Assembly (NCBI GenBank): GCA_938022165.1 | Contig: CALIEI010000053.1 | Span: forward strand, 2,111-66,110 | DNA: 64,000 nucleotides | Source of the DNA: an uncultured Saprospiraceae bacterium | GTDB lineage: Bacteria; Bacteroidota; Bacteroidia; Chitinophagales; Saprospiraceae | Reading direction: 5' to 3' | Part shown: positions 38,180 through 44,735 of the stretch, piece by piece | Position numbering within the stretch: the first letter of the stretch is position 1 | How the letters are laid out: every line of letters starts with the position of its first letter | Program-made: the position numbers and the translations under genes | The notes under the pieces: generated by a model | Told to the model about the DNA's origin: nothing | Databases searched by the model: none | Seen by the model: only the letters and a program-made list of their open reading frames with translations

Positions 38180-38995
38180 ATGAAAAAGATATTAATTGCA
38201 CTAATCGCGTTGCTTAGTATAGGATTCATAAAGAATTCTGAAGCCTCTACTGGATTCCTCTTATTGAAGGAGACTGCTTCCTTTTTAACTATAAATAAAG
38301 TACTACACAAGGTCATTAATGAACCAAGCTGTGGTATCAAAGGATGCGAATATCCTGGCGACCATGATGAAAAGCATGAGAACCAAAGAAATCCTCGTCC
38401 ATTTTTATGGGATTCTGCTACGGAAAGATATCGCGAGGCTACAAAAGCTGAAACTGCTGCTATAAATAGATCTACAGAAGTAGACTTTCCCGGAAGAGAC
38501 GAGGAAGAGGATGAAGAAAAAGAAAAGCAAGAGGAAGAGGAAGAGGATGAAGAAAAAGAAGAGCCAGCGGAAGATGATGAAATCGATGATTTCTTTAAGG
38601 ATACCTTCGGTGATGGAGATGATGAGGAAGAGGAAGAAGAAGAAGAAGAAATTGAGGAGGACTTTGATGACGAAGAAATTGAAATAGAAGAGGAAGTTGA
38701 TTATGATGATGAAGAGATCAATGAAGAAGAGGATGACTTCTTTGAAGATGAAGATGAAAACTTCGAAGAAGAGGATGAAGAAGGTCCAGCACCTTCAGAT
38801 TCAGAAAAAGAAGACGGCAGTACCAATAATGATGAGGATCTAGAAGACTTGGATATAACAGACTGGGGAATCAAGCTTAAGGAACGACTGGAAGAAAAAT
38901 TAGATAAAGAAATCGAAAAAGTCGATCGTAAGATTGATAAGGAGATCGAAAAGCTTCGAAAGAAAAAAAAGAAGAGTGGCGATGGTGATAATTAA
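38180..38995 (+). CDS. secreted hyper-acidic (poly-Glu/Asp) protein with a Lys-rich tail
   Basis: Signal MKKILIALIALLSIGFIKNSEA. Roughly aa 105-225 are almost entirely E/D. The C-terminus has KEIEK repeats and KKKKK. Confidence 0.7.
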   Translation: MKKILIALIALLSIGFIKNSEASTGFLLLKETASFLTINKVLHKVINEPSCGIKGCEYPGDHDEKHENQRNPRPFLWDSATERYREATKAETAAINRSTEVDFPGRDEEEDEEKEKQEEEEEDEEKEEPAEDDEIDDFFKDTFGDGDDEEEEEEEEEIEEDFDDEEIEIEEEVDYDDEEINEEEDDFFEDEDENFEEEDEEGPAPSDSEKEDGSTNNDEDLEDLDITDWGIKLKERLEEKLDKEIEKVDRKIDKEIEKLRKKKKKSGDGDN

Positions 38996-39021: not shown

Positions 39022-39059
39022 AAAAAAGTCATCTAGCAATACTAGATGACTTTTTTTTT
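39022..39059 (+). terminator. intrinsic terminator
   Basis: GTCATCTAG-CAATA-CTAGATGAC followed by T9, with an A6 run upstream. Confidence 0.8.
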
Positions 39060-39184: not shown

Positions 39185-41050
39185 TTAAAGTGACAAATCG
39201 ACAACAACATTGTTACCATGAGAAGTATTTTCGTCTATAAAAATCTCACCTTTTAAAGTTTTTATGCGTGCTAACAGATTTTTAGTAGCTAAAATAGGAT
39301 GTTGTCCATCATTTTCAATTATTAAATTTAAACTTTCTTTATGCTCAGTTATTTGAAGGGTGATATACGTAGCTATGGAAAGATTTATAGAAATGCTTAA
39401 TAATTCTTCTATTATGCGATAAATATATATTTTATTGAAAATCGAATAATTGTGTTGCAATTTATTATATCCTAGATCAATATTCAATAAATATTTTTGT
39501 TCTAGATTACTAATTAAATCCTTAATCGCTTGAATTATGCCAATTGAAATAAGCACTTTTGGCATAAGTGAATTCGAAATGCTACGTGTTGATTTTTGAG
39601 ATTTTTCAACAAGAGAAATTATTTCTTGTTTATTCGACAACTCCATTTGACTTAAATATAATTTTGAAATAGACAATAAACTTCCCAAATTATCATGTAG
39701 GTCGGATGCTATTCTTTGGCGTTCTAACTCTTGGCCTTCAATTAGTTTATTTGCAATTTTTATTTGATTTTTTTTACTTAAAATTATCAACCGGCCTTTC
39801 TCTTCTCTATCCTTCTTATACTTTTGAAAAACTATAAAAGACAGTACACTCATTTCGAATATAAACACAGGGAAAAATGAGTACTTTAAAAGACTCCAGT
39901 AAAGGATAACTCCACTCGATTGAAGAAAAACAAATGAAATGAATATTAAATATAGTATTATTACTACAACAAAGGATGCCTTTTCGAGAGTTCGACTTTT
40001 TAAATACTCCTTTAGACTTAAAATTAAAATCAAAATATATACAGAAACTACCGTACTTTGTAAAAAACAGATTAGAGTAAAAGAAATAATTTTATACGGA
40101 TAGAAAGTGTCTTTCAGAAACAATAAAATTGGAATCCCAAAAACAATTTGCAGCAAAATGAAAAAGAGTATCTTATAAATCAAAAAATAGATCTTTGGGT
40201 AATTTCTTTTTGCTTGAAAAAAAGTCAAACTAAAAATTGAAAATAATAGCAATTGAGAAATAGGAATCCCTATATTAACAATCCTAATTACCAACTTACT
40301 AGATTCTCCCCATAAATATTGATAGCCAAGACCTTCGCCTATCAAGCAATAAATAAACATTGTTAGAATTAGCAATAAATAATAAGCCAATAATTTAGTT
40401 CGAAAAAATAAGAAAACAATAAATCCCATTATTAGATAAAAAAGGCAGCTACCTATTAATATCCCTATTTTATACTTTTCTACTGAAGAATTTTCAACAA
40501 AATTCTCAGTACTTTGTAGTGTAAGATTTGTATAAATAATTGTACTTCCACGATATAAATTCAAGTAGCAATTTAAGGTATCATTCGCCGACATTTCAAT
40601 AGGTAAAAGGTAATTAAGATCTTTAACGGGCCTATCACTAAAATTTAAATCATCTCCAGTTAATATCTCATCAACCTTTCCATTACGGTTAAATGTAAAC
40701 CAGTTAACCCTACTTAAGCCGTAGTTATCGATATTTAAAAAGAATTGAATGCTATTGCTATCCGTATTAACTAATTTGAAATTAATCCAAGGACAAGATC
40801 TAAAATGATCAAACAGGAAGAAATCATAATTTTTATTATTCGTTAAAGAGAAATCAAGATTTTCATTATCAATAATTTTCTCAATAGACAATTCACAAGT
40901 AGAATCTTCAAATACCAATACTGTTGAACTGATGTTTACATTATCAAGTTCACTATTAACATATACTGTGTTAGCACTCGCCTTCGACAAGAAAACAAAT
41001 GGAATCAAAAAAAGAATAATTAGTACGGAATTCTTAATTCTAAACTTCAT
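39185..41050 (-). CDS. 7TM-DISM sensor, HisKA_3-type kinase paralog with an intact H-box and a degenerate ATP-binding domain
   Basis: Signal peptide plus a ~170-aa extracytoplasmic domain (7TMR-DISMED2-like) and about 7 hydrophobic helices. H-box ELERQRIASDLHDNLGS. The expected N-box reads EELLSISINLS (no N, no KH), G1 reads ENDGQHP, and there is no G2. Confidence 0.75.
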   Translation of the reverse strand: MKFRIKNSVLIILFLIPFVFLSKASANTVYVNSELDNVNISSTVLVFEDSTCELSIEKIIDNENLDFSLTNNKNYDFFLFDHFRSCPWINFKLVNTDSNSIQFFLNIDNYGLSRVNWFTFNRNGKVDEILTGDDLNFSDRPVKDLNYLLPIEMSANDTLNCYLNLYRGSTIIYTNLTLQSTENFVENSSVEKYKIGILIGSCLFYLIMGFIVFLFFRTKLLAYYLLLILTMFIYCLIGEGLGYQYLWGESSKLVIRIVNIGIPISQLLLFSIFSLTFFQAKRNYPKIYFLIYKILFFILLQIVFGIPILLFLKDTFYPYKIISFTLICFLQSTVVSVYILILILSLKEYLKSRTLEKASFVVVIILYLIFISFVFLQSSGVILYWSLLKYSFFPVFIFEMSVLSFIVFQKYKKDREEKGRLIILSKKNQIKIANKLIEGQELERQRIASDLHDNLGSLLSISKLYLSQMELSNKQEIISLVEKSQKSTRSISNSLMPKVLISIGIIQAIKDLISNLEQKYLLNIDLGYNKLQHNYSIFNKIYIYRIIEELLSISINLSIATYITLQITEHKESLNLIIENDGQHPILATKNLLARIKTLKGEIFIDENTSHGNNVVVDLSL

Positions 41051-42800
41051 CAGCTAAGGGAATATTGATTCTAATTTTTAAACCTGGTTCTTTTCTTCTT
41101 ATAATATTTATTTCACCTTTTAAATTTTCAGTCCTTACACTAAGTGTACTAAATCTTTGTTGCATATTCGAAATGCCAATACCATTATCTTCATAGAATA
41201 TCAGAAATTCATCACTAAGTTCTATTATTTCAATTTTAATTCCTGTTGCAAATGCGTGCTTTACGGCATTATTTAAAAGTTCTTGAATAATGCGATAAAT
41301 ATTTATCTTTTGAAAATCCGAAAATCGATGCTCAATATTATTTGAACTAAAAAGAATATCAAACTCAGATACTTCTTCAATTTGAACACAAAGATTTTCA
41401 ATATTTTTGATTAGATTTTTACTAAACAATATTTCCGGATTTAAATCCTTGGCAATTCTAATGACTTCATGTTTTGATCGTTTAAAATGGTTCAAAATTT
41501 TTTGGCCTAAGATAGAAGGTTTTTCTAGTTTGTATTTTTCTCGAAATAGAATACTCAATTCATTCAACAAGGGGTTTAGCTCATGCTTCATGTTCTCTGA
41601 TATTAGCGCTCGTTCTTGTTTTTGCCCTTTCAACAAAGTATTAGAAACTTCAAGTTCTTGTTGAGAATTTAGTAAACTGAGTTGTATTCTTTCTTTATTA
41701 GATGTCTGATAATTCTTAAGTATAATAATAGCCACTGTTAGAATCTCCATAATAAATATAGTCATTAGAACACCAGACTTAAAAAATATATTCTCAAATA
41801 GCCGAAAATAAATTACAGTATATAAACTTGTTATAAGTAATATATGAACTACATTAATCAGACATATTTCAATAAATTCAATTTTCTTTTGAGTCAATAT
41901 CTCTTTTGTTATTGAGGCTAAAAGTAAACCTATAGACAAGAAAATTAATATCAGATTTAAAAAAGGAATTAAAAAATAGAAGGTCTGAGCAAACTGTGAA
42001 TTTAATTCAAAAAAATAAGCTACTGAAGTGATAGGAATTATAATTAAGCTGATTTTTTTTATCCATTTGTAAATAGAAATTGGTATTTTATTTTCGGAAA
42101 AATGATTTAAAAATTCTTCACCAATAAGTATTAAAACTATTGTTGCAAAGAATGGTAGTATAAATTGTATAGTTGAATATATATTTGGATTGCCAAAAGG
42201 CAAATTAACCTGGTAAATGAATCCTTCCTTAAACAAAAAGAAAAGAAAGACTAAAGAAAAATAGATAAAATAATATAGAAGCCTTTTGGTATAAAGTATA
42301 AATGCAGCTACTAATAAAATAGATAAAAAGGTTAAACCTAAACCGATAAAGATACCATAGGTAATACTTCTATGTCCATTACTTTCTATAAAAGTAATTT
42401 TATCCCATAACTGAATTTGGGCATTCAGACTTTGATACTTTTTTTTAACTTTCAAATAACAAACAACTTCTTCATTTTCAGTCATTGTAATTGGATAAAG
42501 TGCATATCTGTGTTGAATAGGTTTTTGATCCAATGAGAAATCATGTTTTATAGTAGTTTTAATATCAGTTTTATCATTTCGTAGAATAAATAGTTCACAA
42601 TTTTGCAAATCAAGATCAGTTACTTCTAAAATCAAATTCTTTGTTCGATCACTACTGTTTATCAAAGAAAACTCGTACCACCAAACTGTTGGTGACGAAT
42701 TTCTGTAACTAAGAAGGTTATTAAATTTCGAAAAATTTAGATTTTGCCTATTGCTCAAAATAAAGCCTAAACTCTGCTCAATAGTAGTGTCTTTATACAC
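41040..42800 (-). CDS. 7TM-DISM sensor, HisKA_3-type kinase paralog with intact N/G1 boxes and an atypical H-box
   Basis: Same architecture as its neighbour. N-box QELLNNAVKHA and G1 EDNGIGIS are present. The H-box region reads KQERALISENMKHELNP. GTG start at 42800, but the frame is open upstream to 42962. It overlaps the downstream paralog by 11 nt. Confidence 0.7.
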   Translation of the reverse strand: MYKDTTIEQSLGFILSNRQNLNFSKFNNLLSYRNSSPTVWWYEFSLINSSDRTKNLILEVTDLDLQNCELFILRNDKTDIKTTIKHDFSLDQKPIQHRYALYPITMTENEEVVCYLKVKKKYQSLNAQIQLWDKITFIESNGHRSITYGIFIGLGLTFLSILLVAAFILYTKRLLYYFIYFSLVFLFFLFKEGFIYQVNLPFGNPNIYSTIQFILPFFATIVLILIGEEFLNHFSENKIPISIYKWIKKISLIIIPITSVAYFFELNSQFAQTFYFLIPFLNLILIFLSIGLLLASITKEILTQKKIEFIEICLINVVHILLITSLYTVIYFRLFENIFFKSGVLMTIFIMEILTVAIIILKNYQTSNKERIQLSLLNSQQELEVSNTLLKGQKQERALISENMKHELNPLLNELSILFREKYKLEKPSILGQKILNHFKRSKHEVIRIAKDLNPEILFSKNLIKNIENLCVQIEEVSEFDILFSSNNIEHRFSDFQKINIYRIIQELLNNAVKHAFATGIKIEIIELSDEFLIFYEDNGIGISNMQQRFSTLSVRTENLKGEINIIRRKEPGLKIRINIPLADEV

Positions 42801-43378
42801 TTGTACTGAATTTAAAATGCTGCGATAATCGAACGTATCTTTTATAATGAAAGTAGTTGGTTCAATTTCACTATGAAGTACTTGAATAAATTGGAAGAAG
42901 AAGAATGCGAAGGTGCAATATTTTCGTATCAGAGTAATTGCTTTTAGACTACAAAAAATAGATTACAATATGGCAAATTACTCTTTTGTCACAAAGATTT
43001 TTATATTATTTCTAATAGTATCGTCGTCTATTCTATTAATGCTGAAAACTTAGATAGATGTTTTCCAACATTAAGATACAAGAATCCAATTGTCACATTT
43101 TTCAATATTGTTATATTTTTTTAATGGTTATTTCGAGTTAAGATTTTGAAAGAGATACATAAATGAATTAAAAATAAAATTTGTTCAGAACTGTATCTAT
43201 CAATCAGTTTGAAATACATGAGATAATCGAATTACTTGTAATTATATCGACTAGAGATCTTAATACGCATTATAGAAATTGTAAAATTTAGAAGAAAAAT
43301 TATATAAATTTCACTTTCAATTCTTTTGATAACAAGATATTTTCAACTTAATTGTGTTTCCAATAACCTAATAAGCAA

Positions 43379-44032
43379 ATGACTCAAAACACAATAAAAA
43401 TTGTCGTTGTTGACGACCATCCTGTTGTAATAGATGGACTGAAGCTAACCTTGAAAGACATTCAGAATTTAAGCATAATTGGAGAAGCGTATACTGAAAA
43501 CCAAATTTATACAGTCATCAAAAACTGCAAACCCGATATATTAATTTTAGACCTTAATCTTAACGGAACTAATTCCCTAACTTTTCTAGATAAAATATAT
43601 AGTATTCAGTCAGATATTAAAACTATTATTTTCTCTTCTTATAATACTCCAAGCTTAATACGTTCCATGTCACAATCCAAAGTGAATTGCTTCATTCCAA
43701 AAGATGCTTCAAAGTTCGAGCTAGTAGATGCAATTTATAAAGTACATAATGGAGAAAAATATATTTTTAATAAGACTGGGATGTGTACTGATCAAACTGA
43801 TATTGACAATAACGATTTCATAGATTCTTTTCTAAAAATGAACAATCTTACTCAACGAGAATTAGAAGTAATTCGATTGATTGTTAAGGGTTTTACTAGT
43901 GATGACATCTCTAAGAAACTGTTTATCAGTAAGCATACTGTACAGTCGCACAGAAAAAATATTTTGCGAAAACTTGAACTTCATGACAGGTCAGATATTG
44001 TGAAATTTGCATATGAAAATAAATTGATGTAA
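43379..44032 (+). CDS. NarL/LuxR-family response regulator
   Basis: REC domain (IVVVDDHPVV, DILILDLNLNG, IIFSSY, IPKD). LuxR HTH LTQRELEVIRLIVKGFTSDDISKKLFISKHTVQSHRKNILRKL. Confidence 0.9.
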   Translation: MTQNTIKIVVVDDHPVVIDGLKLTLKDIQNLSIIGEAYTENQIYTVIKNCKPDILILDLNLNGTNSLTFLDKIYSIQSDIKTIIFSSYNTPSLIRSMSQSKVNCFIPKDASKFELVDAIYKVHNGEKYIFNKTGMCTDQTDIDNNDFIDSFLKMNNLTQRELEVIRLIVKGFTSDDISKKLFISKHTVQSHRKNILRKLELHDRSDIVKFAYENKLM

Positions 44033-44423
44033 GTCTACATTGACTTTATGTTCTTGCCTAAGCCCTAAATGCTTTTAAATTAAATATGATCTGCAATTTT
44101 TGATTTCTTAGCATTAAGCTATAATTTAGAAAATATCCTAGTTTTTCTTCTTAAGGATCAAACACCTCCAAATAACTTCTAACAAATACTCAAGCAAGGA
44201 TCTTGTTGTAAAATCCCCTCACGAGGGGATTTCATGCAATCCTAGATTTCTATATTTTTGGTAACTATATAGATTAGCAGTTTGCTAAAATAATGGAAAA
44301 TATCAGTCAAGTTAACTTGCAAAGTTGTAAGTGAATTGAACTTTGAAGATCATCTATTTTGAAAATTGCCAATTAAATACTCCTACTCTCCGATTTCAGT
44401 AATTGTTATTTAAATTTTTCGTG

Positions 44424-44735
44424 ATGAAAAAAATTCTGCTATTGGTTATGTTTTGTGTTAGTTCTTTTTTTGCTAATTCACAAACTTTTGGAGTACAGTA
44501 TACTAAAGAACCAGGATTGTTTTTACTTTACAATCATACAAATCACATATATGTAGTAGACCTTCAAAAATCATGGACTGACTGTAAGGGTATAGTGAGA
44601 ATTACAAATTTTACTAGAATCATTAGACCAGGATATGAAGGCACTTTGGGGGTTAAAAATGGTCTATGTTGGGATGGGAATAATTCATCAAAAACGAACT
44701 TTACAATTGTTTCACATTATAAAATTGAGAGTTAA
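44424..44735 (+). CDS. small secreted hypothetical protein
   Basis: The ATG at 44424 gives the signal MKKILLLVMFCVSSFFANSQ. Two Cys in the mature part. No recognisable domain. Confidence 0.5.
   Translation: MKKILLLVMFCVSSFFANSQTFGVQYTKEPGLFLLYNHTNHIYVVDLQKSWTDCKGIVRITNFTRIIRPGYEGTLGVKNGLCWDGNNSSKTNFTIVSHYKIES

Follow-up and report, generated by a model that had tools for sequence, protein, structure and literature searches.

The 64,000-nucleotide stretch of DNA analyzed here (the window), which belongs to contig CALIEI010000053.1 of the assembly GCA_938022165.1 from an uncultured Saprospiraceae bacterium, carries between positions 39185 and 44032 the genes of two paralogous sensor kinases of the 7TMR-DISM type, denoted A and B, and that of a divergently transcribed response regulator. 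Gene A (41040..42932, minus strand; 630 aa from a CTG codon) codes for a 7TMR-DISM sensor with a domain for catalysis and ATP binding (CA) and no conserved phospho-acceptor His, and gene B (39185..41050, minus strand; 621 aa) for another sensor of the 7TMR-DISM type, in which the HisKA_3 H-box is canonical and the CA-like domain apparently ATP-blind. As far as can be judged from their sequences, A and B most likely depend on each other to act as a single kinase, and we consider it probable that they form a hetero-oligomeric split kinase in which the CA domain of A phosphorylates His452 of B, which then passes the phosphate to the regulator. An obligate heterodimer had already been proposed in the initial annotation of the window, and this idea gains support from the reciprocal losses of motifs, which are conserved among orthologs; the stoichiometry need not be strictly 1:1.

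Both proteins had been described as having the same layout, with an extracytoplasmic DISMED2 domain, seven transmembrane helices (7TM) and a kinase core, and this description was borne out by Pfam searches and by AlphaFold2 (AF2) models. B matches the Pfam profiles of 7TMR-DISMED2 (63.9 bits) and 7TMR-DISM_7TM (42.5 bits). Its match to HisKA_3 is weak (21.9 bits, under the cut-off of 24) and covers only the H-box part of the profile, and no Pfam match to HATPase_c was found. The H-box of B (ERQRIASDLHDNLGS; 39680..39724, minus strand), which harbors His452 (39695..39697), aligns residue by residue to the box around His188 of DesK and has the His-Asp pair found in HisKA_3 kinases. In contrast, the motifs of the ATP site are lost. 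In the N-box (EELLSISINLS; 39377..39409, minus strand), the Asn involved in Mg-ATP binding is replaced by Ile, DesK reading ..TNVVKHS where B reads ..SISINLS. Only the DG of the G1 box remains (ENDGQHP), its GxG motif being gone, and this remnant is followed by an ATP lid shortened to about nine residues and by a region that has neither the G2 glycines nor a recognizable G2 box (ATKNLLARIKTLKGE; 39245..39316, minus strand). The combination of a preserved H-box with missing N- and G-boxes, which the initial annotation had read by eye, was thus confirmed by Pfam and by alignments to DesK, VraS and canonical kinases. Alignments based on hidden Markov models (HMMs) and on structures likewise confirmed the losses of catalytic residues and indicated that the by-eye alignment had not been shifted. 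An autonomous HisKA_3 kinase has an ATP-binding CA domain with the N-box Asn, G1 and G2, which B has not; with no N-box Asn, no GxG, no G2 and a truncated lid, B is predicted to be unable to bind ATP.

The same motif states are found in the relatives of B. A word-based search with this protein yielded nine orthologs, all metagenomic, with 41-54% identity. Residues E443, R444, R446, A448-D453 and L455-S460, which include the His452-Asp453 pair, are invariant in nine B-type proteins, and all B-types have in common the motif ER(Q/R)R(I/V)ASDLHD(S/N)(L/I)GS(L/I)LS. The N-box Asn, the GxG motif of G1 and the G2 box are missing from every B-type protein. HisKA_3 was detected by Pfam in 9/9 B-types and HATPase_c in 2/9, weakly; in precomputed domain assignments, HATPase_c is present in 0/9 of the B orthologs.

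In the AF2 model of B (mean predicted local distance difference test score, or pLDDT, of 70.8, and 76-84 across the CA-like region), a DISMED2 β sandwich, a 7TM bundle and the helical hairpin of a domain for dimerization and histidine phosphotransfer (DHp) are followed by an α/β sandwich, in which a nine-residue loop (581-589) replaces the ATP lid. When this model was compared with the PDB using Foldseek, the DHp-CA part of DesK was top-ranked (E = 2e-7). The CA-like domain superimposes on the CA domains of VraS (4gt8; template modeling (TM) score 0.78, root-mean-square deviation 2.3 Å) and DesK (3ehg; TM score 0.77), and the sensor domain of B on the periplasmic sensor domain of RetS (3jyb; TM score 0.75). 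The CA-like domain of B is therefore predicted to have kept the Bergerat-type α/β sandwich fold.

The pattern in A is the reciprocal one. Pfam matches were obtained for DISMED2 (56-59 bits) and HATPase_c (33.2 bits), and none for HisKA_3. The 7TM match of the window protein (21 bits) lies under the cut-off; all six A-types match 7TM at E ≤ 0.01, with a best value of 3.8e-18. As initially proposed, the N-box (QELLNNAVKHA; 41253..41285, minus strand), which aligns to the CA domains of VraS and DosT, and the G1 box (EDNGIGIS; 41169..41192, minus strand) are intact in A, and its H-box has no His-Asp dipeptide. To this description it must be added that the His found next to the canonical position is not conserved and that the G2 region (QRFSTLSVRTENLKGE; 41112..41159, minus strand) is also degenerate. 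The AF2 model of A (mean pLDDT 67.1) has the same architecture as that of B, with a helical hairpin and then an α/β sandwich; both models thus contain a DHp hairpin and a Bergerat-fold CA domain.

The degenerate H-box of A (ERALISENMKHELNP; 41571..41615, minus strand) can be aligned without gaps to B and to canonical kinases, and this alignment is anchored on both sides (GQ..ER..I....L..LL). It places Lys449 (41586..41588) at the position of the phospho-acceptor and His450 at +1, and A therefore does not have the acceptor His followed by Asp that is found in the H-box of HisKA_3 kinases. Over nine A-type proteins, the His position is occupied by Q, Q, H, Q, Q, E, K, E and H, the Lys being that of the window, and the closest ortholog of A reads Glu-Ser. 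In the other A-types, Y, N, N, N, V, N, S or E is found at +1, and the alignment of these proteins shows no invariant His in the DHp domain. This variability indicates that His450 is incidental in the window protein, and the possibility that it serves as a shifted acceptor was rejected. As for the ATP site, N554, N555, K558, H559 and A560 do not vary among the aligned A-types, and all A-types retain QELLNN..(K/Q)HA.A and D(D/N)G(I/V/K)G. With Pfam, HATPase_c was detected in 6/6 A-types and HisKA_3 in 0/6.

The two genes are also inherited as a pair. Neighborhoods were read at ten loci, namely L018, L019/L020, L021, L022, L023, L024, L108, L109, L025 and the window. L025 belongs to an uncultured Saprospiraceae metagenome-assembled genome (MAG) and was the sole ortholog among the GTDB species genomes scanned. 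In 10/10 loci with readable flanks, the window included, the gene directly upstream of the B-type one is of the A type, and a divergent NarL-type regulator is present wherever that flank could be read (seven loci including the window). Singly occurring orthologs, which would have spoken against a split-function pair, were sought and none was found. The reciprocal motif losses hold across 26-54% identity: one partner has the ATP site without the His and the other the His without the ATP site, with the exception of two A-types that retain the His. A and B are thus co-encoded and co-inherited, and their trees are broadly congruent. Two loci depart from the simple arrangement. At L019 (L019:2445-6276), two tandem A-type copies precede the B-type gene, the first (A1) with Gln at the acceptor position and the second (A2) with the canonical His (DLHNQ). 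At L109 (L109:1804-3275), the B-type gene was called as two open reading frames (89 aa and 400 aa), maybe as a result of a frameshift or an assembly error.

The initial annotation had described the pair in terms of motif decay, a wrong word for a pattern that is old and under purifying selection. For B, mean pairwise identities are 0.48 in DISMED2, 0.50 in 7TM, 0.65 in DHp and 0.53 in the CA-like domain; the DHp is clearly its best-conserved domain, and its dead CA domain is no less conserved than its DISMED2 and 7TM domains. For A, the corresponding values are 0.49, 0.32, 0.40 and 0.50, such that its CA domain is level with DISMED2 and well above DHp and 7TM. Ratios of nonsynonymous to synonymous substitution rates (dN/dS), calculated with the Nei-Gojobori method for the closer pairs, were 0.18, 0.22 and 0.43 for the CA-like domain of B and 0.21 and 0.29 for the DHp domain of A; although only approximate, given the short segments and a partial saturation of dS, these values indicate that the degenerate modules of both proteins are under purifying selection.

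The word-based search with A gave one ortholog only, and the A-type representatives were recovered with an HMM of the A-type alignment run against 1.84 billion representative proteins. A-type proteins scored above 500 bits, and the next were a B-type protein, with 328 bits, and the ordinary 7TMR-DISM/HisKA_3 kinases, with less than 285 bits; about 136 of the top 147 representatives have the His-Asp pair, the N-box and G1. In a tree of 100 proteins computed with IQ-TREE, the A clade and the B clade each have a support of 100 in the Shimodaira-Hasegawa-like approximate likelihood ratio test and are sisters with a support of 96. Their outgroup, P0023/P0039, has the His, the N-box and G1 and, like A, lacks the G2 glycines. 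The sister relationship of the two clades suggests that a complete kinase was duplicated in tandem and that the copies then underwent complementary losses, which would be the simplest history of the pair. Elsewhere in the 7TMR-DISM/HisKA_3 family, P0060 is B-like, with His-Asp and neither N-box nor G1, and P0158, which belongs to a different clade, is His-less; further split pairs may exist in this family.

The divergently transcribed regulator (43379..44032, plus strand) is of the LuxR/NarL type, as initially annotated. It matches Response_reg with 59 bits and GerE with 70 bits, and its residues D12, D13, D58 and K108 are invariant among orthologs that are 52-61% identical. The protein thus has the acidic pocket, the acceptor Asp (Asp58, encoded at 43550..43552), the Lys and the GerE helix-turn-helix of NarL/FixJ-type regulators, and its set of phospho-acceptor residues is complete. 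With NCBIfam, UhpB, NarX/NarQ and LiaS-type kinases are the neighbors of both kinase cores, and NarL-type proteins those of the regulator. By its sequence, the regulator is an ordinary phosphorylation-dependent NarL-type protein, which implies that a phosphodonor is needed.

How A and B would supply it can be outlined as follows. An ancestral 7TMR-DISM/HisKA_3 kinase would have been duplicated in tandem, each copy then losing one of the two activities required. A would bind ATP through its intact N-box and G1, the two proteins would associate through their DHp helices, and the CA domain of A would phosphorylate His452 of B in trans. Phosphorylated B would then hand the phosphoryl group over to Asp58 of the regulator. 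As A and B each keep a DISMED2 and a 7TM domain, two sensor inputs may shape the output. What we infer in this scheme, from the features described above, concerns the formation of a physical complex, the direction in which phosphorylation runs, the stoichiometry and the signal. Phosphatase activity of HisKA_3 kinases does not require the His, the key residue being a Gln at His+5 (PMC5231405), and an invariant Ser is found at this position in the B-types. With a His not needed for phosphatase activity and an ATP-blind B, the invariant His-Asp pair would best be explained by phospho-acceptance from a partner.

Several observations weigh against this model. The degenerate G2 region makes the catalytic competence of A uncertain, although the nearest His-containing outgroup, P0023/P0039, is likewise devoid of the G2 glycines. 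L019_A2 (HN) and L025_A (HE) retain a His at the canonical position, and the split is thus not absolute in every lineage. A simple A:B dimer would be workable only with phosphorylation in trans. Translational coupling by gene overlap cannot be general either. The A and B genes of the window do overlap by 11 nt, as initially reported (ATGAAGTTTAG; 41040..41050, minus strand, from direct reading of the sequence), the overlap containing the TAG stop codon of A and the ATG start codon of B. Nevertheless, the A-B spacing varies from -11 nt in the window, -8 in L108 and -4 in L023 and L024 to +18 in L025, +30 in L019 and L021, +70 in L018 and approximately 390 nt in L022; adjacency is conserved, overlap is not. 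In addition, the CTG or TTG start codons of A-type genes suggest weak translation and possibly unequal amounts of A and B. For these two reasons, the stoichiometric co-expression that had been deduced from the overlap is uncertain. Lastly, a search of 7 congeneric and 17 other genomes of the same family did not reveal the A-B pair, which is therefore not a core system and has a patchy distribution.

It is also conceivable that A and B do not make up one kinase. B might have only phosphatase or only phosphotransfer activity, the regulator being phosphorylated by another kinase or by acetyl phosphate, and A might be an ATP-binding pseudo-kinase with a modulating effect on B or on another kinase, through contact with the DHp domain of its target, as RetS antagonizes GacS. 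Such an arrangement seems unlikely to us, and it is the alternative to be taken most seriously. RetS is itself a 7TMR-DISM protein, and it acts through heteromeric DHp contacts, not through a phosphorelay of its own (for RetS-GacS, see PMC12675982). The Foldseek search with B returned the RetS-GacS co-complex 7n0e as well as the RetS sensor domain, which favors a modulator, and other HisKA_3 kinases of the source genome could be the donors. A B protein devoted to phosphatase activity fits poorly with the strict His-Asp, however, as its His would be unneeded and the catalytic Gln is replaced by the invariant Ser mentioned above (PMC5231405). Similarly, a pure antagonist would not need the invariant N-box and G1 of A. 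Antagonists like RetS have a C-terminal receiver domain and an unrelated partner, whereas neither A nor B has a Response_reg domain and the partner of each is its sister paralog; strict adjacency and the co-divergence of the sister clades fit a dedicated pair.

A decidedly less probable explanation is that A is an autonomous kinase with a non-canonical acceptor, i.e., the +1 His in the window, another residue or another protein, with B as an accessory sensor or scaffold. The presence of His450 beside the canonical position in the window and the retention of the canonical His in two A orthologs are in keeping with this idea, but it is at odds with the variable +1 position and with the absence of an invariant His from the DHp domains of A-types, and it leaves the invariant H-box of B unexplained. 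That the two genes are decaying pseudogenes, i.e., redundant paralogs losing function in a reduced or AT-drifting locus, is hardly credible. The locus is indeed AT-rich (27% GC vs 37%), A has no canonical start codon, and the search of congeneric genomes did not reveal the pair. Nevertheless, frames are intact in the window and at 8/9 of the other loci, the exception being the B-type gene of L109, and the same residues are lost or kept at every locus. The dN/dS ratios of the degenerate modules are well below 1, the CTG start of A is itself conserved, and the AT bias is common to orthologous loci. Local decay was thus rejected on the grounds of conservation, intact frames and dN/dS, and a split kinase made of A and B remains the reading that we favor.

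A comparable division of labor was found in another part of the family. A separate His-less clade led to operons of Spirosoma/Cytophagales, L105 (Spirosoma utsteinense, assembly GCA_014282255.1; L105:4067-10529), L106 (L106:39-6529) and L107 (L107:4106-10437), each of which consists of three tandem 7TMR-DISM paralogs followed by a NarL-type regulator. The product of gene 1 has an intact His-Asp pair, and its CA domain is complete only in L107, being degenerate in L105 and L106. That of gene 2 has lost the His and has complete N, G1 and G2 boxes, and in that of gene 3, Tyr replaces His and the CA domain is degenerate. The 14 sequences of the three Spirosoma clades group together with a support of 100, well apart from the A+B group (support 98), which indicates that the division of labor arose at least twice in this kinase family. 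One may tentatively go further, with considerable doubt, and propose that reciprocal loss after tandem duplication is a recurrent route by which 7TMR-DISM kinases of Bacteroidota become obligate hetero-oligomeric receptors. Two different extracytoplasmic sensors, or three in Spirosoma, might then gate one phosphorylation path, as a built-in AND gate or coincidence detector, and pseudo-kinase subunits, including the one with a His-to-Tyr replacement, might serve as regulatory sensors.

The initial annotation had given the boundaries of B and of the regulator correctly, but not the start of A, which it had placed at GTG 42800, the first ATG, GTG or TTG codon of the frame. The frame is open upstream of this codon, and the added stretch contains no ATG, GTG or TTG. 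At the homologous position, the start codon is CTG at five loci (the window, L018, L024, L025 and L108), TTG in three genes (L019_A1, L019_A2 and L021) and never ATG; the CTG codons are found at 42930-42932 in the window, at L018:6047, L024:766 and L025:4018, and upstream of 1520 in L108. The true start of A is therefore most likely CTG 42932, as judged from the open frame and from the alignment to ortholog N-termini, which also define a putative signal peptide (LIRKYCTFAFFFFQFIQVLHS; 42870..42932, minus strand). A start at GTG 42800 would strip off this signal peptide and leave the DISMED2 domain of A without an export signal. Both proteins thus have the features of 7TMR-DISM sensors (PF07696 and PF07695; signal peptide, DISMED2 and seven transmembrane helices), the signal peptide of A only if translation starts at CTG 42932. 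B-type genes mostly start with TTG, and the use of non-ATG codons suggests weak initiation. Gene callers place the start of A-type genes at an internal GTG or TTG codon, thereby cutting off the signal peptide, and the L108 protein loses approximately 100 residues in this way.

No terminator-like site was found between A and B, and a terminator-like hairpin, with a 16-pair stem followed by a T-run, lies downstream of B (39022..39056, minus strand). The divergent intergenic region between A and the regulator gene (42933..43378) is 446 bp long in the window, vs 118-165 bp at orthologous loci. It contains two related imperfect palindromes (42982..43002 and 43322..43342; TCTTTTGTCACAAAGA and TCTTTTGATAACAAGA), each approximately 40-65 nt upstream of one of the divergent genes, which are candidate autoregulatory sites. 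Nothing comparable is present in the orthologous intergenic regions, and the idea of a shared regulator-binding palindrome in the divergent promoter was rejected on this ground. The GC content of 27% over 39185-44032, vs 37% for the remaining window, has its counterpart at orthologous loci (30-32% vs 33-37% in their flanks). Horizontal transfer, as the low GC content might suggest, is thus unsupported, and this common bias fits composition-biased membrane-protein genes rather than being evidence of recent transfer. The genes that flank the locus vary among orthologous loci. In the window, they encode a secreted protein with an extreme Glu/Asp-rich region (38180-38995, plus strand) and a secreted protein of 110 aa (44403-44735, plus strand), neither of which has a Pfam match. 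The source genome is an incomplete MAG (3.9 Mb, 258 contigs, 87.7% complete).

Histidine kinases are homodimers in the textbook view, and natural obligate heteromers are rare among them. To our knowledge, a natural obligate heteromer has been demonstrated experimentally only recently, with FasB/FasC. The HK1/HK2 proteins of M. tuberculosis (Rv0600c/Rv0601c) represent another type of split histidine kinase, made of separate domains. The design proposed for A and B is thus known and rare, and its 7TMR-DISM/HisKA_3 version appears to be without precedent in print: as surmised in the initial annotation, no such pair was found in a literature search among 7TMR-DISM or HisKA_3 kinases, although the design itself has been published for FasB/FasC and for CheA3/CheA4. 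The locus represents a clean case at the sequence level, with complete sensors in both partners and an old, conserved split that is under selection, and the parallel, independently evolved system of cultured Spirosoma species is amenable to genetic tests. Should the model hold, the pair would offer a tractable system to address how DHp heterodimer specificity arises after duplication, whether phosphorylation occurs in cis or in trans and in what way one two-component pathway integrates two sensor inputs. There is also a lesson for annotation, as automated pipelines call both proteins 'sensor histidine kinase' and truncate A at the false GTG start.

With DesK, VraS, NarX and NarQ, the pair shares the DHp and CA folds, the H-box (in B), the N-box and G1 (in A) and a NarL-type regulator. 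In these homodimeric kinases, each chain has both activities, whereas neither A nor B has the full set of motifs. RetS and LadS of Pseudomonas aeruginosa resemble A and B by their DISMED2 and 7TM sensors, and the RetS-GacS complex (7n0e) provides a precedent for heteromeric DHp contacts. RetS and LadS belong to the HisKA-type hybrid kinases and carry receiver domains, and the partner that RetS inhibits is unrelated to it. In contrast, A and B are HisKA_3 proteins without receivers, are sister paralogs and have complementary rather than antagonistic defects.

Closer in design are two split kinases, CheA3/CheA4 from Rhodobacter sphaeroides (PMC3591291) and Hik36/Hik43 from Synechocystis (PMC7656254); candidates for such an organization have been put at up to 1.7% of HisKA proteins (PMC3591291). 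As suggested for A and B, ATP binding and catalysis on the one hand and the His on the other are carried by separate polypeptides, neither of which works alone, and the partner with the His serves the regulator. In those systems, however, domains are physically missing, whereas A and B keep the whole architecture and differ only by reciprocal loss of motifs. The closest parallel is found in group A Streptococcus, in which FasB and FasC, two kinase-like proteins of full length encoded next to each other, heterodimerize (Mol Microbiol 2025, PMC12675982). FasC is a pseudokinase: its own kinase domain is dispensable, and His246 of its DHp domain has been proposed to be targeted by the kinase domain of FasB; the two proteins serve the regulator FasA (PMC12675982). 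In both cases, two adjacent membrane kinases are associated with one regulator, one partner presumably giving the His and the other the kinase domain, and the FasB/FasC precedent implies that such pairs can work as a split kinase. The two systems differ by kinase family, regulator type and sensors, that of the window being composed of HisKA_3 proteins and a NarL-type regulator. In addition, the split of FasB/FasC was shown by genetics and two-hybrid assays, and that of A and B is deduced from sequence. Unlike in FasB/FasC, the His-less state of the ATP-binding partner, A, is visible in the sequence and conserved, and both A and B have kept a full DISMED2 domain.

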